A stretch of 64,000 bases of DNA from a plasmid, in NCBI RefSeq assembly GCF_056746865.1, contig NZ_JBWKMP010000003.1, one strand, 5' to 3'. Positions 2,048 to 61,468 of this stretch are shown here, one piece after another. Position 1 is the first letter of the stretch, and every line of letters starts with the position of its first letter. The position numbers and the translations under genes are program-made. Under the pieces are notes generated by a model. It did no database searches. It saw only the letters and a list, made by a program, of their open reading frames with translations, and had not been told where the DNA came from.

Positions 2048-2438
2048 AGTGAGTGCTTTTGTGACCTTTTTTAGTAATACAATCCTTTGGTACAAAAAAG
2101 CCGCCGTCCAGTCAATGACGGCGGGCAAAATGAACACTCAGTTAGTTGTATCTGAGAGGGGGGCATTATATTCACTGAATGACGCTTGTGAAGACTCACA
2201 TGTCATCATTTTGTCCTCAAGAATCAGCTCACATCTTGCGCATTCAAGCGTATTTCTCTTTAAAGCCGTGTTTGGACCATTTTGTTGATACGCGAATTTG
2301 GCATCCTCCACGCTCTGAGTGACGAGGTTTACGGACCACCGGGCCATCATATGCATCCATTTTGTGTGAATGGCATTTAGTCGGGAAATAACAAACTGGA
2401 TAAGTTGAAGCCGCGTTAAACGTCATTTCTGGAGGGGT

Positions 2439-2765
2439 ATGTTTGCAGATTATGAAAATCTGGCTGTAGCAGTCATAACATCCCTGCTGAGTGGAACCGG
2501 CGTATTCCTTCTCGGAGTTAGAGACGGGCGCATTTCTGCGTCACTGCTCAACCTCGCGAGTGAATTGTTTACTGCAGTAACTGCCGGGCTTGCGGGGTTT
2601 TGGGTGGCTGATAGCTATGAATGGCCGGAAGGCATCATTTACTGCGTTGTTCTGATTGCCAGTAACAACGGAAGTGAAATTTTACAGGGCTTGAAGTCCA
2701 GAGCTAGTAACGTCTTGAATCTCTTAAGCGTAATAGCGAGTGGGGGAAAAGGTGGAGAGAAGTAA
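2439..2765 (+). CDS. Small three-TM membrane protein, putative holin (LydA position)
   Basis: 108 aa with three hydrophobic segments; RBS ggagg; first gene of an operon that continues into a DarA-sized gene. Confidence 0.4.
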   Translation: MFADYENLAVAVITSLLSGTGVFLLGVRDGRISASLLNLASELFTAVTAGLAGFWVADSYEWPEGIIYCVVLIASNNGSEILQGLKSRASNVLNLLSVIASGGKGGEK

Positions 2766-3211
2766 TGGGTGACTTTGGAAATTATTTCATTTTTATCATG
2801 GCATTTGTTGCCGTTATTGACCGTTTCTTATTTCGTCGCAAGAGTGTTGATATTTTGAGCATTGGCGAAGCTGTAGTGAAAGAGTCTGCTATAGCGTTTC
2901 CCGTGTCGCTTCGCGTTAAGCGAAGCTGGGTAAGCAATGCACAAATCGAATATTGGTTGCAGGACTTGAAAAATCCATCTGTGGTTATTTCGGGGAAAAC
3001 AAGACCAGTTGACGCATCAAAACGCGGTGAGAGAGAAGAATATTTGCTCATCGACACGAAATATCTTGAGCCAGCGAAGTGGGATCTAAAGGTCACATTG
3101 ACTAACGGTAATTGCCGCCTGAATCCGCTTTATCGCATTTTCCCTATCAATGACTGCATAGAACGTCAGTTTATGATTGAAAAGTGTGAAGGAGACTGGA
3201 ATGTCAAATAA
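2765..3211 (+). CDS. Hypothetical protein (LydB position, possible antiholin)
   Basis: 148 aa, start coupled to the preceding gene, RBS ggtggagag; function inferred only from position. Confidence 0.3.
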   Translation: MGDFGNYFIFIMAFVAVIDRFLFRRKSVDILSIGEAVVKESAIAFPVSLRVKRSWVSNAQIEYWLQDLKNPSVVISGKTRPVDASKRGEREEYLLIDTKYLEPAKWDLKVTLTNGNCRLNPLYRIFPINDCIERQFMIEKCEGDWNVK

Positions 3212-3818
3212 ATCTAATTATGTTCTTCTTAATTATGATGAGTTAAACGAAAAGGGGCTGGCAAAACTCGTCAAAGAAATCGGTAAAGGAGGCTACAAGA
3301 TAGCGAGGGTGATCCCCGCCAGTAATGGCAGGAAGAAAGACGGGATCATGACGCGCACGTTTACCCTTATCGGAATCGATGAGCAGACGATGGACGTTCA
3401 GGTTAATGATACTGGTGATATTTCTGGTGTAAAACTGAACGGAAAAATTGTTCCTTTCAAGCCAGTTAAAACGCTGATGGCTTTAGGGCAATCACTGGCT
3501 GCTTTATTTAATAAAGGCGCATCATCATTTCAGAAATCATTGGCGCGTAAGTTAGCTCGTGCGGCGAAAGATATTGATGATGGGAATAAGAAAATAAAAG
3601 GCGTTAAGTCCAATGCGCAGAAACTAGCAGAGGCAAAGGAATCTCGCGATGCGATCCGCGAGGATATTGAAAGGGCCAAAGAAAAATTAAATCAGGTGCA
3701 AGGTAATTCAGACCGCGCAACAAGAGAAACTGAAATCATTAGAACCGAGATGGCGCAGGAACTGGCGAAAACTCGCGTATTGAAAGAAGAAATAGCGCGC
3801 CTGGAGGAAGATGCATGA
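3201..3818 (+). CDS. Hypothetical coiled-coil protein (Hdf position in a dar-like operon)
   Basis: ATG at 3201 preceded by aaggagac; charged coiled-coil C-terminus; ORF-track start at 3177 is probably an over-extension. Confidence 0.4.
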   Translation: MSNKSNYVLLNYDELNEKGLAKLVKEIGKGGYKIARVIPASNGRKKDGIMTRTFTLIGIDEQTMDVQVNDTGDISGVKLNGKIVPFKPVKTLMALGQSLAALFNKGASSFQKSLARKLARAAKDIDDGNKKIKGVKSNAQKLAEAKESRDAIREDIERAKEKLNQVQGNSDRATRETEIIRTEMAQELAKTRVLKEEIARLEEDA

Positions 3819-5740
3819 TAAAGAAACCTATTCGAATAAATATCCAGTCCACTTTTGCAGATACGCTCACTGGATATACGCCTAATCGTTGGGTGGCGGA
3901 AGATATCACCGAGGATGATTTACTTATCGAGCCTGCGACGCTGGAAGATATCGAGCTGGCCTATATGGGCAACGAAATTTTGGTAACTACCAATGAGGCA
4001 ATGTTCGAAGCTTTAACCACAACAAAATTGCGGTTAGCGCAAACAATGCGAGCATTTGTCCGGGCGCTTAATCGCGGCCTGAATGGCACTGACATTGCTG
4101 CGGGTACGGATGAGGCAGGTGAATATGAAGACGGACGTAATAGTATCGGTGGGGCAATCATTGGGCGCGTGCGCCGGGTTGCTAATATCCCTGTTGTAAC
4201 AGCACAAATACCTCTAACCGATGGACAAACGACAAGCATAATTTTCCATTCTCCAACCGCAGACGGCACAAGAATTAAAGGGGATGACGAGCTGGTTGCG
4301 TTTCAGTTTCTTCTTAACAAAAGAAACGTTACGCATGTTGTTGCGCCAATCGGTGGGCGTGATGTATCTCTGAGCCAGGTGTGTCAGGCGCTTTCTAACC
4401 TCATTGAGCGTAACAGTGCAAAATTCAAAAAAGCAAAGGAGCGCCAGGACAAAATGAAGGCTGATATTGAGGGGTATCTCAATGAAGCCGACAAGCTGGC
4501 AGAAGAACGTTCTGTGCTGATTGAGCAGGTTGAAGACGCACAGCGGGGGCTGGCAGAGAAACGCTCAACACTCAATGATATGCAGAATAAATTAGACGCA
4601 CAAAAAGCCCTTAACGGGGAATTGCAGGCTAAGCGCGATAATTTATTGTCAGCTAAGAGCCAAGGAACTAAAGAGCGTGCCTTCAATGATCAACTGCGAC
4701 ACATAAAACATAATCTTGCTACAGAAGGCCAAACAACGCTGGATAATGGTGCTGTAGTTAAGTATGTCACGTCAGGCAGTGATAGCTTTGTCACGATTGA
4801 GGCACCAGAAGGCAATTTCAGTATTGATGTCAGTGCTGTTAAAGGTGGGAGTTCAGCGGACGCTGCAACCAAATTACTTAAAGCCTATCGTGAACATAAT
4901 GCTGATCAATACAAAGTGGATGTGTTGCCGGGCCAGCCTGAGCCAACTGATCAGCCGCAGCCTGAACAGGAGCCACAACCAGCATCACATCCTGATCCCC
5001 TGGAGGTTGGTAAATATCGCTATGCGCTACAATCTCGCCCGGCGGGTGTTGGTGCGGTTCCTGAAGGAAATAAAGCTGTACTTGACCGTCCTGATCAGGC
5101 TGATCCGTATTACGAATATGCTCGTCACGGAATCATTACGTATGACCGCAAACTGACAGACGAAGAAGTCAGTCAGTACGAATTACGCTATCTGCCTGAT
5201 GACGATGAACTGAGAGGGATGGCGAACGAGCTGGTTGCGTCCAGCATGGTAAAACATATTGATGGCTATGTAGATCTGTTTGGAAGTGACCTGAAAACAT
5301 TCAAGGCGCAAGTTAAAATTCTTTTCCGCAAAGCGTTCCCGAACGTGGCATATCCACTTGGTGATGGGGAGAACCTTTTCATTATGGACGTGTATAACGC
5401 CCTTCAAAATCATTCAAGCGAAGTAAAAACAGATCCTGTAGTTGAGCCAGAATCGCAACCTGCACCAGCACCAGAACAGGAGCCGGAGCCAGAAGAAGCG
5501 GGTGAATCAGCAAGCGAAGCTGACCAGGAAGCAGATAAAGCGCTTGAGTACCTGAAATCCGTTCCGGAGCAGTTCACATCCCGCGATCTGACGGTCATAA
5601 GTGCTGAACTTGATCATGTGCAGGAAGCTGCAAACGCTCTTATCAGTGCTGGTCGATATGACGAGAACGAAGCAACTGTAGGTGCAGCCGTTGACTACCT
5701 GATCAATATTCTGGCTGAAATTCAGCAGGGAGGTGCTTAA
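3815..5740 (+). CDS. DarA-like candidate (large head-associated protein with coiled-coil and Pro/Glu-rich linkers)
   Basis: 641 aa, close to my recollection of the size of P1 DarA; operon context lyd-like, this gene, small gene; two PEPxxQP-type linkers. Assignment is from size and position, not alignment. Confidence 0.35.
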   Translation: MIKKPIRINIQSTFADTLTGYTPNRWVAEDITEDDLLIEPATLEDIELAYMGNEILVTTNEAMFEALTTTKLRLAQTMRAFVRALNRGLNGTDIAAGTDEAGEYEDGRNSIGGAIIGRVRRVANIPVVTAQIPLTDGQTTSIIFHSPTADGTRIKGDDELVAFQFLLNKRNVTHVVAPIGGRDVSLSQVCQALSNLIERNSAKFKKAKERQDKMKADIEGYLNEADKLAEERSVLIEQVEDAQRGLAEKRSTLNDMQNKLDAQKALNGELQAKRDNLLSAKSQGTKERAFNDQLRHIKHNLATEGQTTLDNGAVVKYVTSGSDSFVTIEAPEGNFSIDVSAVKGGSSADAATKLLKAYREHNADQYKVDVLPGQPEPTDQPQPEQEPQPASHPDPLEVGKYRYALQSRPAGVGAVPEGNKAVLDRPDQADPYYEYARHGIITYDRKLTDEEVSQYELRYLPDDDELRGMANELVASSMVKHIDGYVDLFGSDLKTFKAQVKILFRKAFPNVAYPLGDGENLFIMDVYNALQNHSSEVKTDPVVEPESQPAPAPEQEPEPEEAGESASEADQEADKALEYLKSVPEQFTSRDLTVISAELDHVQEAANALISAGRYDENEATVGAAVDYLINILAEIQQGGA

Positions 5741-6108
5741 TGGCTATCTCTGTTTTAGAACGCCTGAAATTAGGTAAAGAGCTATCAGATCTAATGCAGG
5801 CGCAGAAAACCGCGCCAGTATTGCAACGCGTCTCAATTGGTAAGCAGATTGTTGATGTGATGCTTAAACTGGGGCTTGGGGCTGCGGCCCAATCAGTATC
5901 GGATCCGCAGGCGCAGCCAGATACTGTTGCAGGTGACATTCCTAAGATAGTGACAGACTTCCTTGGAGGTGCATTCACAAAGTCCACGCAAATGGAATTT
6001 ATTGATGCGCTACGTGGGATCTCAAACTATGTAGGCGAGTTCCTTACGTTGGAACAGGCTAAAGAGCAGACCATAAGCTGGGTGAAAGCCAACGGTTATG
6101 CAGGGTAA
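5740..6108 (+). CDS. Small hypothetical protein (DdrA position)
   Basis: 122 aa, ATGA-coupled to the upstream gene, followed by a terminator. Confidence 0.4.
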   Translation: MAISVLERLKLGKELSDLMQAQKTAPVLQRVSIGKQIVDVMLKLGLGAAAQSVSDPQAQPDTVAGDIPKIVTDFLGGAFTKSTQMEFIDALRGISNYVGEFLTLEQAKEQTISWVKANGYAG

Positions 6109-6111
6109 TCA

Positions 6112-6139
6112 AAGGGGCTGAAATGCCCCTTTCACTTTC
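6112..6139 (+). terminator. Rho-independent terminator-like hairpin
   Basis: aaaggggc-tgaaat-gcccctttc. Confidence 0.5.
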
Positions 6140-6201
6140 CTGTAAGTCCATAAATCACACACTTTTTACACTTCCTGCTTTCTATGTAAGGGGAGTGTAT
6201 T

Positions 6202-7587
6202 TTGAACAAGTCAGTTACTTCCGCGCTATCCGAAGCAGCAGACATTAACAGTGTTATTGCGCTGGTTTCTTCATTAGAGAGGCGAGAAACACGCCAGGGG
6301 CGCAGTAGTTACGTAGTCACCAGTAAAGGGGCAGAGGTAAAGACGGCTTTTAAGGTCGTTGATGCCAGCAGTCTGATCATTTCGAACAACCTTGACGGTA
6401 CGATTAATCCGGCCTTCCCGGAAGAACTCCAACCACGAGATCGTACCCGGCTATCCAGCAAACTCCAGGTTAACCGTATTGCCTCCAATTTACGCCCGGC
6501 ACAATTAACGGATTCCGGTATGAGCAGCCACGGAGCGCCGATAGTTGGTCCGGACAACGTTGTTGAATCCGGCAACGGAAGGAGTATGGGTATCTGGCGT
6601 GCCTATGAGCAAGGACAGGCGGATGAGTATCGCCAGTACCTGATCGACCATGCGAAAGAGTTTGGTCTGAATCCTGACGAAATTTCGCAAATGTCTATGC
6701 CCGTACTGGTGCGAGAAAGACTCACAGATGTAGACCGCGCTCAATTTGCCCGCGATTCAAACATTAGCGATCTGCAAGAGATGGCAGCAAGTGAAAAAGC
6801 GTATGCGGATGCGCAATTTCTCACTGAGAGCGTCATGGCGCTATTTAATCCTTCAGATGATGGAAATCTGCTGGCGCGGTCCAATGATGCGTTTATTCGT
6901 GCGTTTTTGCGCGAAATTGGCGATACAGCGACGGCAGGCTTGCTTACTGCCGATGGGCGTCCCACGAAACAGCTTATCGATCGCATCCAGAATGCAATTT
7001 TTGCCAAAGCGTACAAGGATGAAAGGCTTGTTCGGTTGGTGGCGGAAGAGCCAGATCCGGAAATGCGTAACATCCTTACCGCATTAAATACGGCAGCCAG
7101 CGATTTTGCGCAAATGCAGTCGCTTTCAGGTGATGTTCACCATGACACGGTAACCGGACTGGTAGACGGTATAGAGCAATTGAATGGTCTGGATAAACAG
7201 GCTATAGCAGCACTCCAGGACGCGATTAACCTTGTTCGTGAAGCCAAAGACAACGGTCAGGCAGTGGAAGAGGTGATAGCCCAGCGCGGACTCTTCGGTG
7301 ATAGCACGCCGGAAGCTGAGGCGTTGGCGCTATTCATCGTGGCAAATAATCGAAGCGCGAAGCGCATGGGGGCTGCATTCAAAAAAATGGCACAAAAAAT
7401 CAACGACGAACTGATTCATAAACAGCAGGCGTTGGGCGATATGTTCGGCGGTGGAGATGTCGATCTACGTAGTATTTTGACCGCTGTTTCTAATGAGATT
7501 GAACTGGAACATGGAGAGGGGAAAGGGCTTAACTTCACGATGTTCGAAGCCAAAACAGAACAAAGCGATTTTGGGCTGGAAACCTGA
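6202..7587 (+). CDS. Hypothetical 461-aa protein, probable TTG start
   Basis: Long ORF with RBS aagggga 8 nt upstream of TTG; no recognisable motif by eye; occupies the slot after the dar-like genes. Confidence 0.5.
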   Translation: MNKSVTSALSEAADINSVIALVSSLERRETRQGRSSYVVTSKGAEVKTAFKVVDASSLIISNNLDGTINPAFPEELQPRDRTRLSSKLQVNRIASNLRPAQLTDSGMSSHGAPIVGPDNVVESGNGRSMGIWRAYEQGQADEYRQYLIDHAKEFGLNPDEISQMSMPVLVRERLTDVDRAQFARDSNISDLQEMAASEKAYADAQFLTESVMALFNPSDDGNLLARSNDAFIRAFLREIGDTATAGLLTADGRPTKQLIDRIQNAIFAKAYKDERLVRLVAEEPDPEMRNILTALNTAASDFAQMQSLSGDVHHDTVTGLVDGIEQLNGLDKQAIAALQDAINLVREAKDNGQAVEEVIAQRGLFGDSTPEAEALALFIVANNRSAKRMGAAFKKMAQKINDELIHKQQALGDMFGGGDVDLRSILTAVSNEIELEHGEGKGLNFTMFEAKTEQSDFGLET

Positions 7588-7698
7588 CCTGGCGACCGGA
7601 CACCCCGGATAACCTCCGGGGGATTCGGTATTTCTTCTTTGAATAGAGCGTTTTTAACAAATACCCCGTAAATACTCGCCCAGCAGGGCGGGGAGCAG

Positions 7699-8130
7699 TC
7701 ACCGCATTGGTGTGACAGATACGGCGATATTTTTATTCAGTTGATGCAGTGCCAGCTCGACAGTTTCAACTTTCGATGAATGTTCGACGTCGAGAAGCCG
7801 ATCAATCTGTGTTCCATTTTTTCCGAGTTTGCGCGCCAACTCTGCTTTGCGTGTGCCGGTTTCTATCATCGCGTTGTGGAGTGCAGCCTTCATTGCTGGT
7901 AGCACTGGCAAAGAGACAACGTACTCACCTTCTTTTGGCTCGCTACCAGTGGGAACAGGTCGGCGTTCTTCAATCTCAATCGCAACCGCTGCGACCAATC
8001 CATAACCAGCCTCAAGCAACGCTTCTTCAACTGAGTCACCCACGGAATTAAACAATGGTAGGTCGCGGCATGATACGACATACGCGCCGGTTTTGTCGTC
8101 GCGCTCCAGTTTTACCGGATAGTTAAACAT
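7699..8130 (-). CDS. hicB: HicB antitoxin
   Basis: N-terminal YPVKLERDDKTGAYVVSCRDLP with a C-terminal HTH-like region, matching the HicB family; directly downstream of hicA on the same strand. Confidence 0.85.
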   Translation of the reverse strand: MFNYPVKLERDDKTGAYVVSCRDLPLFNSVGDSVEEALLEAGYGLVAAVAIEIEERRPVPTGSEPKEGEYVVSLPVLPAMKAALHNAMIETGTRKAELARKLGKNGTQIDRLLDVEHSSKVETVELALHQLNKNIAVSVTPMR

Positions 8131-8160
8131 AGAGAAGCTCCTAGTGAAAAAGGCTGGGGC

Positions 8161-8343
8161 TTAAAGCCCCAGGTCCTTCATTATTTTCTTGCGTAGCGGT
8201 TCAGGCATTTCCTTTGAACCGTGGTCCGGGAAAACCGACCGCTTTCCGTTCAGGTTCACTTTCTGATGACTGCCGCCACCAGGCGCTTTCCTGAACTCTG
8301 CCCCTTGCTGGATTAACCAGCGTTTGAACTCTGAATACTTCAC
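8161..8343 (-). CDS. hicA: HicA mRNA-interferase toxin
   Basis: 60 aa, MKYSEFKRWLIQQGAEFRKAPGGGSHQKVNLNGKRSVFPDHG...LRKKIMKDLGL matches the HicA family consensus. Confidence 0.85.
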   Translation of the reverse strand: MKYSEFKRWLIQQGAEFRKAPGGGSHQKVNLNGKRSVFPDHGSKEMPEPLRKKIMKDLGL

Positions 8344-8575
8344 AAGTTTCCTTATGCAATTTATCCATCATGGGCGATAAGAATAGTAACACAAAAGATA
8401 TAAAACACAACAAAAATGTCTATAAACATAACTTCCTTGTTTGGTGGTTGCGTTTTTGGAAAAGCATTTCCGCATATGAAAAAACATCAGCATATGGTGA
8501 AAACAACGAAAAATTACTGATGAAATCACACACTGGATAAGCTGCCACGAAATCGGAAACCTTTTGCGGTGAATC

Positions 8576-10261
8576 ATGGCAACGAAAGACAAAAACAAGG
8601 GCTTTCTGTCGGCATTGAAGAAAGCCTTCAGCGGTGGTGATGTTACGCCTGCCGATCCGGTCGTATTTGCGAGCGGGCATAGCGTCGTTGCTCGTTCTGG
8701 CCTGTCCGCCTTGCGTCCTGGCATCCTGGGGAGCAATAGCGATGGCATGACAAGCGCGGCGGATACTGTATCTATATCGGCAGAATTACCGAGTGACCGC
8801 CTGCAAAAATACAACATACTGGAGACGATGGCGAAAAGTCCGACTATCTCCACAGCATTAAACATTCACATTGCGCATTCTCTGGCTCCATCAAAAAAAA
8901 CAGGCCTCGCATTTATTCTCTCTCCGAAAAATGGGGCGGATAAGGAGGCTGTAAGTCGATGTGAGGAATTGACCGCTGATTTAAGCTCAATGATTAATGA
9001 TGGCCTGCCATCGTGGGCCATGATCATGGCTATTTTCGGTGTGTCGTATATCCGTCCATATGCAGAGCAAGGGAAGGGGATAACTGGAATTGAGTCGAGC
9101 TATTACACGCTCCCTCATTTCGTTCAGGAGTTTTATCGCGGTAGCCAACTTGTCGGATTCAGCGGTGATTATATTCTGGATACGCATACTTTGCGCAGAG
9201 TTATAACCGAACCGTGGAATCTGGTTTCCATGAAAAACCCGTACTGGACGCCTCAGCATAAAGTAATGCCAGTAACTTACGGCACTAAAGGCTATTCCTT
9301 GCTTAGTGAACAGCAGGACAAGCCGTTAATGGAGACGCAGAACTACGGTACGTCGTTTCTTGAATACAGTTATGAACCCTACCTGAATTTATGTGCCGCG
9401 CTTGCTGCGCTGAAAGCAACGCGAAACAACGCTGCAAAAATTGATCGCCTGATTGCACTCACAACGAACACGATAGATCCGGTAAACGCGGCGAATTATA
9501 CGCGCGGGGTCAGCCAGGCACTGAAGCGTCATAGCGACCTCGTAGCGCAACGGTCGATTAATTCTAATGCTCTCCCATCTGTACTTAACCATCTGATACC
9601 CGTCATGGGGGATGGGAAGAACGGGATCACCATTGATACGCAATCTATACCCGCAGATATCAGTGGTATCGAAGACGTTATGTTTCATCTCCGACAGCTC
9701 GCGGCAAGCCTCGGTATTGACGCAACAATGCTTGGCTGGGCTGATCAGATGAGTGGTGGACTTGGAGAAGGCGGTTGGCAGCAAACAGCTATCCAGGCCG
9801 CCTTACGCGCGAACTGGATCAGACAGGCCGCCCAGCGGACTATTTATCGGCTTCATGACATTCACCTCGCTTATAAATACGGGAAGGTTTACACCGAAAA
9901 AAACCGTCCTTATGACGTGCAATTCAACTCAATGAACACAGCTATCCAGGAAGAGGAAAACCGAGAGCTGGATGCGCGCGCCAACTTCGTAGCTGTCATC
10001 TCGCAAATAATGGACCAGATCCAGAACAACCCGAAACTGGCGGGTAGCGACGCGTTTATGCGTTATCTGTTCACCGAACAGCTTCGTATCGACGATGACA
10101 CTCTCAACGTAATGATCCAAGAGTTTAAGGCGAATGAATCAGAGCAAAACAACGAGCATGGTATGTACGAATCCGCGCCGTTGTCGTCCGGTGACGATCC
10201 GGAAAACTGGACGCAAGAACAATTAATCAACTTTGCAAAATTTGTGATGAGCAATAATTAA
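8576..10261 (+). CDS. Putative portal protein (Prt-like)
   Basis: 561 aa ORF immediately upstream of a protease/scaffold-like gene; assignment by size and synteny only. Confidence 0.4.
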   Translation: MATKDKNKGFLSALKKAFSGGDVTPADPVVFASGHSVVARSGLSALRPGILGSNSDGMTSAADTVSISAELPSDRLQKYNILETMAKSPTISTALNIHIAHSLAPSKKTGLAFILSPKNGADKEAVSRCEELTADLSSMINDGLPSWAMIMAIFGVSYIRPYAEQGKGITGIESSYYTLPHFVQEFYRGSQLVGFSGDYILDTHTLRRVITEPWNLVSMKNPYWTPQHKVMPVTYGTKGYSLLSEQQDKPLMETQNYGTSFLEYSYEPYLNLCAALAALKATRNNAAKIDRLIALTTNTIDPVNAANYTRGVSQALKRHSDLVAQRSINSNALPSVLNHLIPVMGDGKNGITIDTQSIPADISGIEDVMFHLRQLAASLGIDATMLGWADQMSGGLGEGGWQQTAIQAALRANWIRQAAQRTIYRLHDIHLAYKYGKVYTEKNRPYDVQFNSMNTAIQEEENRELDARANFVAVISQIMDQIQNNPKLAGSDAFMRYLFTEQLRIDDDTLNVMIQEFKANESEQNNEHGMYESAPLSSGDDPENWTQEQLINFAKFVMSNN

Positions 10262-10274
10262 CCGGAGGGAAATA

Positions 10275-11273
10275 ATGCAATCACTGAATACCGTTACGGA
10301 TCGCTTCTCCCTGGTAGAGAAAATCCGCAAACACACACCTCAGAACAATCGCAATTACGTTATCCAGTCGGTACGAGACACATTCAACTCGCCAGAAACA
10401 AAAGAGCGTATCGCACTGGGTGAGATGTATGGTTATTACGGTCATGGTCGCCGGGCGATGCACTATAACAAAACGAAAAGCCTGGACTTGCCGGAAGTCT
10501 CTGTTGTGATGGTAGATGGGAAGCCTGTTGTATTGGAGAACGTGCCGTCAAACAGGACTATCGACATTTCAATTGACGACAACGGCATTGTTACCCATAC
10601 ACAGGAAATACTGGATACGGACACCGGACGTATTGTTCAGGGTATGATTAATTCTGGCGCAGGTGGTTGGTCATGGGCTACATCTGGTCCAGATTACTCT
10701 GTATCCCTGGTAAAGTCTTTTCACGGTTTTGATTACGTAACTGTGCCTAACTATATCAGCCTCGACAAGAAAAGCCTGATGCTTGAATCAGCAGAAGAAC
10801 GCGACGCGGCGATTCATGCGGCACTTATCGAACAAGGTTTTACCGATAATGCTGCTACGGATCTGGTTCACCACTTTTCAGCAATGAAGAGTCAGCAAGC
10901 CATATTCGAATCAGCACAACGTGAAGTTCTGGAGTCGGAACTGATACATCTTGAAGTGGAAAATATGCAGCTTCGCGACAAACTACGCGACCAGGCCGCG
11001 ATGATGGAAAGCCAGGGGGAGAACGCGAAGAAATGCCGCCGTATTTTGCGTGATGCTATCCAGGAAATGCCTGTTTTTATCAGCGCAGAACAGCGCCGGG
11101 CGCTCTGCCGTATGCAGTCAGAGGATGATGCACGCATTGTCGCAGCGATGCTTGAATCCCTGGGGGCTAATGCCACTTATGGTCTGCCAATATCAGCCAA
11201 TAAACAACAAGAAATACCGGTGAAAGAGAACAAGACGGTGACTCCGCTGATCTTTGTGTCTAAGAGGATGTGA
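10275..11273 (+). CDS. Putative prohead protease / scaffold (Pro-like)
   Basis: 332 aa; globular N-terminal region followed by a coiled-coil C-terminal segment typical of protease-scaffold fusions; coupled to the upstream gene. Confidence 0.4.
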   Translation: MQSLNTVTDRFSLVEKIRKHTPQNNRNYVIQSVRDTFNSPETKERIALGEMYGYYGHGRRAMHYNKTKSLDLPEVSVVMVDGKPVVLENVPSNRTIDISIDDNGIVTHTQEILDTDTGRIVQGMINSGAGGWSWATSGPDYSVSLVKSFHGFDYVTVPNYISLDKKSLMLESAEERDAAIHAALIEQGFTDNAATDLVHHFSAMKSQQAIFESAQREVLESELIHLEVENMQLRDKLRDQAAMMESQGENAKKCRRILRDAIQEMPVFISAEQRRALCRMQSEDDARIVAAMLESLGANATYGLPISANKQQEIPVKENKTVTPLIFVSKRM

Positions 11274-13987: not shown

Positions 13988-14012
13988 GCCCCGGCTTGGC
14001 CGGGGCTTTTTT
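13988..14012. terminator. Bidirectional rho-independent terminator between ant-like (+) and the peptidase gene (-)
   Basis: gccccggc-ttg-gccggggc followed by tttttt. Confidence 0.6.
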
Positions 14013-14496
14013 ATGCCTCATTAGTTGAGGTTGCTGCGTCTCCGACTGGTAACAGAGCTGTATTGCGTGGTTCGCCAGCAGGCCAGCGATAGCCAGACAC
14101 TCTTGATGTTGGGAATGCGCGAATATTAACAGCATCCCCCTGGTTCCCACCCAAGACAAGCAGATCGCCATTGGCGCGGTGTCCGACAACAAAGCCTACA
14201 TGCCCACCGCCTGCGCGAGTAAATACAACGATACATCCGTATGCCGGTGTATCTAATTTCTCGCCCCAATCCAGATAGGATTTTGCCGACTCAAATCTTG
14301 TTGAGCGGATACCTACACGTTCCAGCATTGCACCAACAAATGCAGCGCACCACGGCGTTTCGTCGTCTTTAATTCCGCTGCGCTTAATATCCCGCCAGAA
14401 CTGAACGATCTCAGGATTGTGTTTCGCTCCTTTTATTTCGGTGACTCCAATATTTTTACGGGCCTCAATAAGCCAGCGAGGTTCAATGTTTGCCAT
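14011..14496 (-). CDS. NlpC/P60-CHAP-like protein (TIGR02594-type), putative cell-wall peptidase
   Basis: 161 aa; conserved Cys in PWCAAFV and His in GGGHVGFVV, consistent with a papain-like Cys-His peptidase. Confidence 0.55.
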   Translation of the reverse strand: MANIEPRWLIEARKNIGVTEIKGAKHNPEIVQFWRDIKRSGIKDDETPWCAAFVGAMLERVGIRSTRFESAKSYLDWGEKLDTPAYGCIVVFTRAGGGHVGFVVGHRANGDLLVLGGNQGDAVNIRAFPTSRVSGYRWPAGEPRNTALLPVGDAATSTNEA

Positions 14497-14633
14497 ATAT
14501 TTCTCCCGCTCATGGGTTAATAAGTAGGCAAACTATGGTGAGTATGTGATTTTGACGGTAGTGTCGTTCATCCCTGAAAATAACATTCTCCATACCCTCT
14601 CAAACCGAACCGCTTAAGGCGGATTTAACGGTT

Positions 14634-17600
14634 TTGAGGGGGCTTCCTTTGGACAAAATAATTGATTCAATTAGCCAGGCCACCAGCATTGGGGCGCTGA
14701 TTGAAATTGTTAGTCGGTTGCATAAACCGCGAGCTGTAGTGACCTTTGGCGTTAAGAAAGTCGATGGCGTCAGTATTCAGAAAACACGCCGGACAGCAAA
14801 CAACGCCGCAGTAGATCTTCTTAATTCCCTTCCGCCCGGCTTCGATGGAGCGAAATTAACTGACGAACAGCGTCAGATTCTTGCCGGGTATACCGGTGAA
14901 GGCGGCCTGACAGATGGTGAGGGCAGCCAATACGAATACTATACGCCACAGTTTATGGCAGAAGGTATATGGGATCTCTTCGGCGACTACGGTATTGATA
15001 GCGGTCACGTACTGGAACCGTCAGCAGGCACAGGTATTTTCCAGGAGACAAAACGGCAGGGCATGATAATGACCAGCGCCGAACTGTCTCCGATCTCCGG
15101 TCGAATAAACCAGCTTTTGCACCCGGAAGATGATGTGAATATCGGGGCGTTTGAGGCGCTGGCGGCGAAAGATGCAATGTATGACCACGCAGTTGGTAAC
15201 GTACCGTTTGGCGAAGGGCGTTCCGGCGTCGCCGGGCTTGATCCGGCATATGCAAACGAGAAGAACGTTGGCAATTATTTTGTGCTGCGCACGATCGACA
15301 AGGTTAAGCCTGGTGGGCTAATTGTATTGGTGGTGCCGAATGGCATGACCGATGGTACGAAATACAAAAAATTGCGCGATAAAGTCAGCCGTAAAGCGGA
15401 ATTTTTGGGCGCGCATCGTATGCCTTCTGGTACGTTCAGCGAATCCGGTACAGATACCGTGGTGGACGTATGGGTATTGCGTAAACACCCGGAAACCTTC
15501 CTGGAGATGATCCCCGACACGGATGATGCAACGCTCAAATCGGCAAACGTCCTTTGGGATACCTTCCTCAAAGGGAAATGGTTTACAACCGAAGGGAAGC
15601 GATTTGTTTACGGCGACATGGAACGCACCAGCTTCCGCAATACCCTGGTGGTGAAAAAGGACGGTCGTGTATCCAATGAGTCGATGAAAACCGCGTTATC
15701 ACGCCGCTTTGAAAGCCGTATTAATTGGGATTTGCTCGGAGTAACTACCCAGGCATGGCAGGGCGCAAAAGTAGGGGATAAGCGTCTTGTAGGCGGTATC
15801 TGGCATGAGTTTGATGGCCTGAAATGGGTTAAGGACACGACAACCAAATCCTCCGCGCTTGATGTAAGTCGATATGGTGTTTCGACGTTTGGCGATCTGC
15901 AGATCGCGTTCCAGTCAACAAACGGGATTCTGGCTTTGTCATGGGACCAGATATCGGCGATCGCGTCCGACTATCCATCGGTTGTCAGTGATGAAGTGGC
16001 AGCAATGATTCGCTTTGCTGGCAAACAGCGAGAAAAAGACAGGGAGCGCGTTATGCGCGGTGCGTTGATAGGGCAGTTGATCAACAAGGCACTTGATTTG
16101 CGTAACCTGGGGGTGAACGTTGATGACAAACTGGCAGATGCATCCCGCCTGGCGGCAGCAGAAGTTGCGAAGTATGGACCACCGCACGCGATTAAGCTGA
16201 ATGGGCTTGCTGAAGCTGGCGCTAAAAACTGGATGACGTTCACTGGCAATGTGAAACAGGATGGTTCCACTTCTGACCTTCTGGCAGGGCGACTTGATGT
16301 AACGGATGGTGCTGCCGGTATTGACTTTACACGTCCGGAACAAGTGATAGCACATCTTTTCAGTGATGTAGCCCTTAATCCTATAACGCTGGGCGACTTT
16401 CGTGAGGCGTTTGCTGGTGAACTGCCAGAGGACGACGACGCGGCCCTTGAATACCTGGCGAAATTTGATGATATCGCTATTGATGGGTATGGCTGCCTGC
16501 TGCCGATGGACCGCGCCACCAGCGGCGATATTGTAACCAAAACAGCATTGCTGGTGGGCTGGCGTGATGCATCAACAGGTGAGCAGAAAGCGAACTTTGA
16601 GCGTCAGTTGGCGAAAATCGAAGAGAAACGCATTTTCACGCCACTAAATAAAGTCACCGTTAATCTGAACGCCCGCTGGCTGGATCGCCGCTTGATAAAA
16701 GAGTTCCTGGCAGAGCAGGGCTATGACGAGTTTAAGTACACTGAACCTGATCTGAAGGTCGTCGATGGCATTCTGGTATCTCCGGACGATTACGAAGGTA
16801 AGGACGGGGTATTTACCGGCTATCAGCTACGAACCGTAAACGGCAAAAACGGGAATGAGTTCAAGAAGGCCAACAATAAAGACGGCTTCCTGAACCAGTT
16901 AGAAAACTACCTGAACGGTGTTAAACCGCGTGGGCAGAACGCTAACGAGTACCTGGATAAAATTGCTCAACTGGAAGTTAGCTTTAACGACTGGTTACGC
17001 ACCCACCCGCAGGCGGATCAGATAGCCCGTGACTATAACGACGCATTCAATGGCTTCATTCCGTTCACGCACTCTAACGCACCGCTTGGCCTGGAAGGGA
17101 TTAGTGGAAAGCGCATTCCTCTGACTTATCAGAATGAAGAAGTTCGTCGCTTGTCAGAAGATGGGCGCGGCATCATGGGATTTGGTACCGGGCTGGGTAA
17201 AACCACGACCGCGCTTGCGCTTGAGGCGTATAACTTCGAAACAGGTCGTACTAAACGCACGTGTATTGTTGTTCCGAAGGCGGTTTATCAGAACTGGTAT
17301 CACGAGGCACAGAGCTTCTACAGTGCTGATGCCTTCGCCAATATGATGTTTATCGGTCTGGATGAAGTTCGTGATGACAGCGGAAATATTCTGACCGCTC
17401 CGGTGCTTGATGAAAATGGCGAACCCCGCCTCGACAGTAACGGGCAGCCTCTTACCAGAAATGTTGTGAAAGAGTCCGCCAGCGCCGTTATCGTTCAGCG
17501 CATGAACATGATCCCGTCGTCAAATTGGCGAACGGTCATCATGACAAAAGAACAATTCGCGTCTATCCCGCTACGAGAAAAAACCATCGAGGAGAACTCA

Positions 17601-20600
17601 CAGCAAGCTGTCTTTAATGCTGTGGAAATGGGGCGTCTTGACCTGGCGTCTGGTAAACACCGTGATGCGCAGAAGAAGAACAAGATTAAGGATCAGGCCG
17701 CGAATACCGGTACAACGAAGAAGCAGAATATCCCGTACTTTGAGGATATGAACTTCGATAGCGTGATAGCCGACGAGGGGCATAACTACCGCAACTCCTT
17801 TAATGCCGGGCGTGAAGCGGGACAACTGGCATATTTGCCTAACCCGGCAGTATCCAAGATGGCCCGCGACATGGCTGTAAAAGCTGCGTACATGATGAAA
17901 CGCAACAACGGGCGTGGTGTAGTCATGCTGACGGCAACACCGCTGGTGAACAGTCCGATTGATGCCTTCAACATGCTGTCTACTGTCATTCCGCAGGAAG
18001 AGTGGATGCGCATGGGCATCATTACGCCTGATGATTTCGTTCGTGTGTTTGGTAAAACAGCCACAGTTCAGGTCCAGAAAATTTCCGGGGAAGTGGAAGA
18101 GAAGCAGGGGCTGGTTGGCTTCCAGAACCTTGATGGCCTGCGTGGTATTTTCCATCGCTGGACTACTCTGAAGACTGCTGCGGACGTCGGGGCGACGGTT
18201 AAAATCCCTGATATTGTCGAGAATACCTTGCAGATCCCGATGACAGGGGAGCAGGAGGCTGCTTATGAAGAGCTTCGTAAGCGTGCACAGGAGTTAAGTA
18301 GTAAAGATGCGCTGACGGTTGATGAAAACGGGCATATCACAAACGAAAAACCGGATGATTTCATCTTCTCCATCATCCGCGACATGGATAAGGTTGCTAT
18401 AGATCCGGATCTGTATGCCAGTGCGATTACATTCCAGTTCCCCGTTGAGCTTGCAGACAAGGTAAAAGCTATTGCTGATGCCCTGCCAAAAGTAGCTGGC
18501 GGTAAAGTGGCAGATGATGCAGACGAGGCCGAAGAAGACGGCGCTGGTGGGCTGGTTAGTACGCGCACCAGTAAGGTAGTGAAGACCACCTTTAGTGAAC
18601 ATCCGGCGCATGTTGAAATACGTGCCAGCATTGAACTGGAAGCTGAAATACTGAAGGCCATTGCTGCCGCCGGGATTGATATGCAGCAGGTATCACACCC
18701 AATCCCGCCGAAGTATGCCGCGCTGATCGAAAACCTTCGTGAAGGTCTGAAGAACGGTAAACAAATTGTCTTCATTGATGAAAAAGCCCAGCACCAGAAG
18801 CTGCGCCGTATTATCGCCAGTGCACTGCAAATGCCGGAGCAGGAGATAGGCATTATCAATGCGACGACCGTTAGCCAGGCTGGCGGCATCAAGCTGAAGA
18901 AGGTGAATAAGCCGACTGAACCTACTCCGAATAAAAACGGTGAATACAAAGAAGGGGCATGGGAAACCTACTACAGCAAACTTGCCCAATATGAGGATTA
19001 TCTCTCAGCTAAAAATGATGCTGGCCTTGAGGGTATGGAAGGCATTGCCGCCGACTATAACGAAGGGCGCACGCGCATAATTATCTGTAACAAGAAGGCT
19101 GAAGTAGGTATTAACCTGCATATCGGGACAACCGATATCCACCACCTGACACTACCCTGGACACCAGCCAGTATCGACCAACGAAATGGGCGCGGTGCGC
19201 GCGTAGGTTCACCGCAAGAGAAGGTCAATGTTCACTACTATTGTGGCAAAGGCACATTCGACGACTTCCGTCTGGATACGCTGAAACGTAAGAAAGACTG
19301 GATCAAGATGGTAATGACCTCCGACATGTCAGAGATCGCCAATGGTGATGCGGATGATGCTGATGAACGCGCCATTATGCTGGCGGCAAACCCGGAAGAA
19401 CGCCGCGCAATCATGGCTCGCCAGGCGCAAGAGCGTGAAGAACGTCTGAAACTGAAAGCACAGCGCGAGGCCAACAATGCTCTCGATATCTACCTGAAAG
19501 CGGCAAACGCCGCTGGAAAAGATATCGGCATGATGGAGACAGAACTGAAAAGCGCGATGGAACAGATAGAGTATTACCAGCGAAATCTTGACGACCTGAT
19601 AAAAGCGGGTACGAACAGGAATGGGCAAAAATTCGCGCTTGAGCAGTTGAGTAGCTACAGAAAACGTGCGCGGGTGCTGCGGTTTGCGATCACCAGGGCA
19701 AAAGACGCGGATACCATAATGAAACGCTCTCGTGGTGATGTGGAGCGCGCTATTAAGTCTGGTGTGCTGGATATCAGTATCGATGTTATTCAGAACCCAC
19801 AGGAATATATGCGCACTGACAAGAATATCCTGTTGCATAAAGGTAGTTATTACCGTGCAGTCATTGATGATCGCGAAACAACAGCGATTGTCCGGGTGGA
19901 AAAAATTGACGGTGAAAAAGCACAATACCTCTGCCGTATCGCCTGGCTGGATAGAGCAAGTCGTTACGCTCGATCACCGGGGTCAATCGTTACATTGCCG
20001 TTTGACTCTGTGATTGAAGCGGTAACTTTTGAAGAGGGGGTAGCTGAATCGCGCGCAACGGCTGCGCGTGGTGTTCAGTGCCACCAGCTATCAACAATAC
20101 TTACTCGCGATCAGTTCTATGATGCTATTCGCAATGGGGTAATGAATGTTATTGCTGGTAAACCTGGTAATGCATGGGGCGGTGGGTCAGCTATTAAATA
20201 CTGGGCATATCGCACAGATGATGGTCAGATCGCGCTGTCATCGGCCTATGATGGCGTGATAGGCCAAAAAATCGGGCGAGCATCGGATATAGCACCTGAA
20301 CGATGGATATATCCAGATGGCAACGATGAGGCGCTGAAGCGTGAAGTGGCAAAAATACAAGCCAGTGATAACCCGCTGAATATCGTGGACGGCGAGGGAT
20401 TCCTCCAGGCATTGTATGGGTATGATTACATCCAGGGAATGCAGGCATGGGGCGCACAGGCAACGATGGATGATGTTGTCCAGGAGTTCGAAAACTGGAT
20501 GGCTGGGCGTGGTCTGTCAGGTCGTTCGCTTAATAAAGTCACTTCTGAAGATATTCTTAGCTTGTTCCGCAAACCGTCCGGAGAAGGTCTGGAATCATTC

Positions 20601-61305: not shown

Positions 61306-61468
61306 CGATCATTTTATCCTCCATGATTATTAATGAATGTCATAATGATAGCGCACTGTTGCACCGTGCGCAAGTGCATATTGTAACAATTCCCCTCCTC
61401 CATCCAAAATCACAATCTCCCGAAAATCTTCCTTTCGATACCTGATAAATCGACCTTTGAGGACGCTT

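Follow-up and report, generated by a model that had tools for sequence, protein, structure and literature searches.

What closes a P1-like lysis and head operon when its last gene fits no P1 product in size, and what is a toxin–antitoxin pair doing just beyond it? These questions are raised by a plasmid region in the RefSeq assembly GCF_056746865.1 (contig NZ_JBWKMP010000003.1), from which a stretch of 64,000 nucleotides (nt), hereafter the window, was analysed. Positions 2439–7587 carry six open reading frames (ORFs) on the plus strand, the last of which (6202–7587) encodes 461 amino acids (aa), and a hicAB pair separates this gene from the portal gene; the ORF listing places all of them where the original prediction on this DNA had put them. 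On our reading, the region is very probably the late 'darA operon' of a D6-type plasmid prophage, that is, an ordinary lysis and anti-restriction set in the order lydAB-hdf-darA-ddrA-ddrB. We put the probability of this explanation at about 0.88, a joint figure that covers the operon, a short ddrB, its status as a late unit of its own and the mobility of the adjoining hicAB cassette.

Judged by its synteny with phage D6, its high nucleotide identity to D6 and to plasmid relatives, and its location on a plasmid, the window is a D6-type plasmid prophage and a relative of P1. Positions 2384–7553 (about 5.2 kb) share 85.6% DNA identity with Escherichia phage D6 (NC_050154), and about 130 plasmids, nearly all from Escherichia, Salmonella, Shigella and Klebsiella, match a 7-kb stretch at 85–96% identity. 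Together with the PHROG family match obtained for each gene of the operon (E values from 1e-38 to 0), this argues that the genes are real and not chance ORFs. The stretch from ddrA to the portal gene prt was found in 98 of 5,426 complete E. coli genomes, and all 109 places at which it occurs are plasmid-borne. The rest of the window gives mosaic matches, at 96–99.6%, to the same plasmids.

The first five genes overlap or abut in an operon-like manner. When the annotated genes of P1 and D6 were translated and compared with the window proteins by blastp, all five found their P1 counterparts at E ≤ 1e-21 and in the P1 order, which bears out the predicted likeness to lydA-lydB-hdf-darA-ddrA. The product of lydA (2439–2765, 108 aa) is a holin by its match to PHROG holin family 1527 (1.3e-38), with 41% identity to P1 LydA and 93.5% to D6 LydA. 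Next to it, lydB (2765–3211, 148 aa) encodes a holin antagonist or lysis-timing protein (34% identical to its P1 and 93.9% to its D6 counterpart); its match, PHROG 1898 (4.3e-68), bears the label lysis-determining protein. Two internal head proteins follow. Hdf (3177–3818) matches PHROG 1620, 'Hdf-like antirestriction' (3.2e-72), and is 40% identical to P1 Hdf and 80% to that of D6; the listed ORF has 213 aa, the likely start being the ATG at 3201, as in the D6 annotation. DarA (3815–5740, 641 aa) is 41% identical to P1 DarA over 623 aa and 82% to D6 DarA, and scores 1154 bits against the 350-bit cut-off of the NCBIfam equivalog anti_RE_DarA ('antirestriction phage head protein DarA'); PHROG likewise assigns it to the DarA family, and the Pro/Glu linkers predicted for it are visible in the translation as two Pro/Glu-rich stretches. 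Finally, ddrA (5740–6108, 122 aa) matches PHROG 1855, 'DdrA-like anti-restriction protein' (1.8e-47), with 34% identity to P1 DdrA and 87% to that of D6. NCBIfam models named DarA alone, and gave no name to the other seven window proteins tried or to the two long DdrB proteins discussed below. Homologs of Hdf, DarA and DdrA are thus found in order downstream of lydA and lydB, as in a Dar system; the alignment with the P1 dar operon that had been put forward as a check on the original prediction was positive, these three proteins being related to their P1 namesakes.

After a 93-nt spacer comes the 461-aa gene, which starts with TTG. By orthology this gene is ddrB, the P1 gene that follows ddrA, reduced to its N-terminal 45%. 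The original prediction was right that the size of the product matches no P1 protein, but the gene is not the new, unassigned partner that it had been taken for. The product is 64.5% identical to residues 2–442 of the 995 residues of P1 DdrB (blastp) and 96.9% identical over 449 aa to D6 orf25 (454 aa), described in the D6 record as 'similar to P1 gene ddrB', and its match to PHROG 2299 covers profile positions 9–447 of 995. Residues 42–173 form a ParB/Srx-like domain, recognized by Pfam ddrB-ParB (PF18763; E 8.8e-42, model positions 2–120 of 121), and a helical domain follows. E122, S123, G124, N125, G126 and R127 are invariant in 30 homologs of 43–94% identity; the arginine of this SGNGR stretch agrees with the active-site arginine expected in the ParB/Srx pocket, where a conserved arginine has been described (PMC5512222). 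A suggested activity of the family domain is to bind a nucleotide or hydrolyse it, or else to act as a DNase (PMC5512222). A profile search of the PDB sequences with the 30-sequence DdrB alignment returned nothing below E = 0.19.

In P1, DdrB combines the DdrB-ParB domain with a C-terminal metallopeptidase (MPTase) of the zincin type, proposed by Iyer et al. to process DdrB before packaging, and solo DdrB-ParB proteins are known as well (PMC5512222). The HExxH motif was not found in the 461-aa protein, whereas P1 DdrB has HELGH at residue 872, and tblastn with the C-terminal half of P1 DdrB gave no match anywhere in the window. The metallopeptidase half that marks full-length, polyvalent DdrB is accordingly absent. 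It should be added that Pfam misses the metallopeptidase in P1 DdrB, which is instead assigned from the HExxH motif and the literature (PMC5512222). An antisense ORF of 110 aa (6741–7073, minus strand) lies inside ddrB, about where P1 annotates iddB, and is probably not a gene.

The pattern of occurrence and selection indicates that the short form is intact and functional, a DdrB core that stands alone under selection and is the normal state in the D6 lineage, and no remnant. By tblastn, the N-terminal module is present in 606 plasmids, 117 of them D6-type (at least 80% identity), and only four of these have a D6-type C-terminal half, which leaves about 113 of the 117 with the short form. For the N-terminal module, six D6-type copies (five short, one long) give a ratio of nonsynonymous to synonymous divergence (dN/dS) of 0.04–0.09, with dS reaching about 1.4. 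Homologs of 437–485 aa are encoded on 83–94-kb contigs from Pantoea, Leclercia, Vibrio and Photobacterium. The end of the short protein is precisely the point at which P1 DdrB passes into its C-terminal half, and residue ~449 (…GEGKGLNFxMFE) is best regarded as a module boundary, because short forms and relatives bearing the C-terminal domain PF18823 break at the same point. The latter, DdrB relatives from Vibrio (P0051–P0076 and similar; about 611–626 aa, on 86–97-kb contigs), represent a third architecture at this boundary.

The N-terminal module (6202–7548) is unusually conserved, its 64.5% identity to P1 comparing with 34–50% for the other Dar and head proteins; either far tighter constraint on the module or its more recent exchange would account for this. 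A rare long DdrB of D6 type is encoded at positions 4130–8118 of plasmid L005 (NZ_CP135715), where it bears no annotation in the PLSDB gene table; it has 1013 aa with HEIGH at residue 890, and three other plasmids have the like. Behind it in L005 come an ORF resembling hxr (43% identity to P1 Hxr), a gene of the XRE family and a hypothetical gene. The C-terminal half of the long form is 29% identical to that of P1, in line with the 34–41% of neighbouring proteins. Within the D6 lineage, this form is plausibly the ancestral one.

Two other readings of the gene have to be weighed against this. Given that its domain falls within the ParB/Srx superfamily, the 461-aa protein might be thought to have no part in Dar function and to serve the plasmid prophage in partition or DNA segregation, as a protein of ParB type. 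However, the match is to the specific ddrB-ParB family and not to ParBc, Pfam detected no helix-turn-helix DNA-binding domain in the protein, the gene lies between head genes with no adjoining parA partner, and the P1 protein that it resembles so closely is a virion component (PMC9024508). Orthology to P1 DdrB effectively refutes a partition role, which we find scarcely credible. It is also very improbable, if slightly less so, that the ORF is a dead, decaying remnant left when insertion of the hicAB cassette truncated a full-length ddrB. Such an origin would agree with the existence of the long form in L005, followed as in P1 by an hxr-like gene, and with the fact that similarity to this long form stops at window position 7548, near the cassette. 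Yet the same short gene occurs without hicAB: L003, L008 and L009, where the site is empty, have it with 461 aa, and D6 and L010 with 454 aa. The low dN/dS between short forms, their prevalence among D6-type plasmids, the proteins of similar length in other genera and the coincidence of the break with a domain-module boundary common to other architectures likewise contradict decay, and the idea of a remnant is already close to refuted.

As regards its expression, the short ddrB appears to form a late transcription unit of its own, because a hairpin and a repeated promoter-like motif lie upstream of it and a terminator hairpin lies downstream. Just after the ddrA stop, a G+C-rich, terminator-like hairpin (6111–6132, plus strand; −22.3 kcal/mol, z = −3.9) is kept in D6, L003, L004 and L005. 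It is followed by a candidate late promoter at 6152–6172 (AAATCACACACT, then TTTT, then TACACT), located 50 nt upstream of ddrB and kept in all five related loci examined. Eight nt after the ddrB stop, an intrinsic-terminator-like hairpin (7595–7629, plus strand; −24.3 kcal/mol, z = −2.7) precedes the T-run ATTTCTTCTTT; both the terminator scan and the inverted-repeat search (as I4) list it.

Two further copies of the candidate promoter lie on the same strand. One (2386–2406; AAATAACAAACT, 4 nt, TAAGTT) stands 53 nt upstream of lydA, and its motif is kept upstream of lydA in D6 and L005; the other (8523–8543) stands 53 nt upstream of the portal gene, at the right edge of the variable segment described below. 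Their 12-nt core, AAATMACAMWCT, is matched 9 times in the window, where 2.9 matches would be expected, and none of 100 shuffles reached 9. Positions of the core include 2386, 6152, 8523, 14541–14552 (minus strand), 14578, 57483 and 61407. Five copies lie 50–56 nt upstream of gene starts, namely those of lydA, ddrB, prt, darB and a divergent lysozyme-like gene (start at 14496), and the copy at 61407 is 50–70 nt upstream of the next ORF. At the lydA, ddrB and prt sites a TAnnnT hexamer follows 4 nt after the motif. Taken together, AAATMACAMWCT looks like the late-promoter box of the D6 phage type, unlike the −22 box of P1.

The insertion of a hicAB pair had also been predicted, and this too is upheld, by Pfam matches for both proteins and by the emptiness of the site in most sampled relatives. 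HicAB is a type II toxin–antitoxin system in which HicA is an RNase toxin and HicB acts as antitoxin and repressor. Here hicA (8161–8343, minus strand) encodes 60 aa that match Pfam HicA_toxin (PF07927; 1.4e-9, residues 4–60) and PHROG 353, 'toxin' (8.1e-15), and the conserved histidine is seen in the GGGSHQK stretch of the translation. Directly downstream on the same strand, hicB (7699–8130, 143 aa) matches Pfam HicB-like_2 (PF15970; 9.6e-13, residues 4–82) and PHROG 497, 'HicB-like' (6e-35), and its C-terminus has a helix-turn-helix region, residues 80–139 matching PHROG 1373, 'transcriptional regulator'. The pair thus unites a toxin domain carrying its histidine with an antitoxin fold and a DNA-binding C-terminus, and in RefSeq near-identical proteins go by the names of HicA family toxin and HicB family antitoxin. 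A sigma-70-like site lies upstream of hicA, at 8422–8395. Furthermore, a strong hairpin with a T-run (8154–8172, minus strand; −18.6 kcal/mol, z −2.8) extends over the end of hicA, immediately ahead of the hicB start, and may attenuate expression of the antitoxin.

The pair sits in a 972-bp cargo segment (7549–8520) that has no counterpart in empty-site relatives; similarity to L003 ends at 7548 and resumes at 8521. The segment contains the last 13 codons of ddrB (12 residues and the stop), the terminator hairpin, hicB, hicA and the hicA upstream region, and in every cargo variant examined the right edge falls directly before the promoter-like motif of prt. In most of the sampled relatives the portal gene follows 65 nt after ddrB with nothing between them, and L003, L008 and L009 are of this empty type; counts of such cargo states are approximate, since the diverged prt piece of D6 type is not joined by megablast. 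Judging from its distribution, the 972-bp segment is a mobile cassette. It is present in 14 of the 98 E. coli genomes with this plasmid type. More distant versions of it (78–87% identical) are found in plasmids of Klebsiella, Enterobacter and Citrobacter and in an Enterobacter phage. The ddrB tail changes with the cargo, reading AKTEQSDFGLET in the window, NSTDLNNCRTEN at empty sites and PTSVG in D6.

The same site holds other contents elsewhere: where the window has hicAB between ddrB and prt, D6 and likewise L010 have a DUF4145 gene and a small ORF, and L005 has its long ddrB with the hxr-like and XRE genes. Five E. coli plasmids, including L006 (NZ_CP085065, 1146–4531), carry the hicAB cassette between ddrA and ddrB, together with a 41-nt remnant of a ddrB 3′ end and alongside genes for TnpB (IS200/IS605-type), a DUF3944 protein and a helix-turn-helix protein; their ddrB–prt site is empty. 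Because the cassette occurs at the ddrA–ddrB site too, both flanks of ddrB accept cargo. When the surroundings of the cassette were searched for repeats, neither a target-site duplication nor flanking direct or terminal inverted repeats came to light. For want of such repeats a transposon-type insertion was rejected, and recombination in the conserved flanks is the likelier route of exchange.

The absence of a target-site duplication and of terminal inverted repeats, which means that there is no scar of transposition, could also be invoked for an opposite history, in which hicAB was ancestral at the ddrB–prt position and was lost from the relatives instead of being gained. The empty-site and hicAB versions of the last 12 ddrB codons, which have the same length and agree at 21 of 39 nt as read from the sequences, may indeed be diverged versions of each other. 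We nevertheless regard ancestral presence as improbable, although not to the degree of the two readings of ddrB rejected above. The cassette is present in a minority of the E. coli genomes, and in nine E. coli plasmids it is 99.2–99.7% identical on backbones that are only about 92% identical, with a ddrB dS of up to 0.72 (window against L004), which points to recent exchange; moreover, the cassette sits elsewhere, beside the TnpB gene, in the five L006-type plasmids, and unrelated cargo fills the same site in D6 and L010. A mobile cassette thus remains our explanation for the segment, and the role of its genes is then to be considered. Most likely, hicAB stabilizes the plasmid prophage by post-segregational killing. 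Alternatively, it might serve mainly as an anti-phage abortive-infection or defence module for the host and not as a plasmid-stabilizing addiction module. Relatives hold other cargo at this site, including a DUF4145 protein, and variable cargo spots are known in phage-plasmids (PMC7969092, PMC10879196), both of which would suit defence. PADLOC models, however, gave no meaningful match for HicA or HicB (nor for the short DdrB and two D6 cargo proteins), and sequence does not tell defence from addiction, two roles that are not mutually exclusive. A principal role in defence is in our view unlikely, though a good deal less so than the ancestral presence of the pair.

The gene identities, the domain content, the module boundary, the selection on the short form and the mobility of the cassette are shown by the analysis. 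From these a working of the region can be proposed, in which packaging into virions, activity against restriction, the function of the promoters and what hicAB does are supplied by homology. The Dar system of P1 has six components, which act in cis and have a set loading order; they are internal head proteins, of which Hdf and DarA load first and set head size, DdrA, DdrB, DarB and Ulx being dependent on these two for loading, and they exit the head along with the DNA, which they shield in cis against type I restriction (PMC12810830, PMC12707154). In P1 virions DdrB is abundant and is listed as 'aids DarB addition to capsid' (PMC9024508). By analogy, LydA would be the holin and LydB would hold it back until late in infection. 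Hdf and DarA would bind the capsid inside, set head size and enable DdrA, DdrB, DarB and Ulx to be loaded, and the loaded Dar proteins would come out of the head together with the DNA and guard it in cis against type I restriction. The short DdrB would be packaged without self-processing and would do the core job of DdrB, which in P1 is described as helping DarB into the capsid. From the selection acting on it, we infer that it needs no peptidase half.

Several points weigh against this picture. Packaged P1 DdrB has a mass of about 76 kDa (PMC5512222), compared with about 50 kDa for the protein encoded here, and P1 may therefore package sequence that is absent from the short form. Residues 175–450, the helical part, have no recognized relative. 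The promoter motif was partly derived from three sites that it is meant to explain; the narrower patterns tried earlier, ACACTGGATAAGYT and ACTGRWTAWGYT, were not enriched over shuffles, and a 19-nt pattern matches only the three sites of its own derivation, the enrichment being confined to the 12-nt core. Lastly, packaging, anti-restriction and the dispensability of the peptidase half are argued from homology, and packaging, anti-restriction and the small heads that result from loss of hdf or darA are known for P1 only (PMC12810830, PMC9024508, PMC12707154).

The next late genes and the other two Dar genes lie further along the plus strand. The portal gene prt (8576–10261) encodes 561 aa, with a match to PHROG 1497, portal (3.4e-226), and 50% and 94% identity to the Prt proteins of P1 and D6, respectively. 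It is followed by the prohead protease gene pro (10275–11273; 92% identical to D6 pro). An antisense ORF of 165 aa (8368–8865, minus strand) runs across the hicA upstream region and the start of prt and is probably not a gene. Further on, a darB-like gene (14634–21485; 2283 aa) was detected by tblastn with P1 DarB (43% over 2000 aa) and a ulx-like gene (21522–21956; 144 aa) by tblastn with P1 Ulx (46% over 138 aa), each having a PHROG match as well; by homology, all six Dar components are encoded in the window. The darB-like product has methyltransferase and helicase regions. The divergent gene next to darB (14011–14496, minus strand) is lysozyme- or transglycosylase-like, and an 86-aa ORF follows the ulx-like gene.

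At the other end of the region, between a tail-fibre assembly gene and lydA, the cin invertase is represented only by a 24-codon remnant (2210–2281, minus strand), 71% identical to residues 11–34 of P1 Cin. D6 has an intact cin and cix sites at this position, and plasmid L009 has a similar pseudogene. The tail-fibre inversion switch appears to have been lost in the window.

How much of this is new? The operon, the short ddrB and hicAB are all in public records already, mostly annotated ones (D6 and dozens of RefSeq plasmids): the D6 record names its own ddrB, and in some RefSeq plasmids, too, the gene bears the label ddrB, with HicA and HicB given by name. The value as a discovery is therefore small, and only the reading of an autonomous, cargo-flanked DdrB core without a peptidase half is mildly new. 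It is tempting to speculate, at odds that we would place somewhat short of even, that the DdrB core of the D6 lineage is a self-contained late unit, with its own promoter motif and terminator, that both of its flanks are recombination spots which collect cargo, and that the peptidase half is dispensable. The types of cargo seen at these flanks are hicAB, DUF4145 genes, XRE and hxr regulators and TnpB elements. If this proposal is correct, selection on the short form amounts to a natural experiment, from which the metallopeptidase half of P1 and self-processing would be dispensable for packaging and function, and the part of DdrB that does the work would be the ParB/Srx-plus-helical module. Short and long forms, which have one exact module boundary in common, offer a ready-made comparison for the role of the peptidase half in P1, and the ddrB–prt junction, as a well-defined cargo site, could be used to follow gene flow among phage-plasmids of the P1/D6 type.

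Compared with known systems, the region resembles the darA operon of P1, with which it shares gene order and orientation, homology of every product (34–64%), late character and a position adjoining head genes. It differs from P1 in lacking lydC and hxr, and in that prt and pro follow directly in the same orientation, whereas those of P1 lie beyond IS1, ssb and lyz; darB and ulx, which adjoin prt in P1, are differently placed in the window. The gap between ddrA and ddrB is 12 nt in P1, where the hairpin has no counterpart, and is taken up here by the longer spacer with its hairpin and promoter-like motif. P1 late promoters consist of a 9-nt box, 4 nt and a −10 hexamer, the same layout as at the motif sites of the window, but the sequence of the box differs. 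DdrB itself lacks the C-terminal 550 residues that carry the HExxH peptidase in P1. With the polyvalent proteins of Iyer et al. 2017 (PMC5512222), for which solo versions have been described, it shares PF18763, the conserved arginine and a place among late virion genes; having no second effector domain and no MPTase, it is not itself polyvalent.

The hicAB pair agrees with other HicAB systems (PF07927 with PF15970 or PF15919) in its upstream toxin gene, a toxin of about 60 aa with Gly-Ser-His kept, and an antitoxin composed of a HicB fold and a C-terminal DNA-binding region; it differs from them in its location in the late-gene region of a phage-plasmid, in being convergent with ddrB and in the strong hairpin between its genes. 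D6 (orf30 to orf21) is alike in architecture, with the same gene order, a short ddrB (orf25), and then prt, pro and repL, each gene, ddrB included, being annotated as 'similar to P1 gene ...'. Finally, the E. coli plasmids NZ_CP104667, NZ_LR890273 and NZ_CP069647 and their relatives have the identical arrangement of short ddrB, hicB, hicA and prt, with a cassette (99.2–99.6% identity in the three named) whose genes are annotated as HicA and HicB, on a backbone about 92–93% identical, so that the window represents a different mosaic of the same family.

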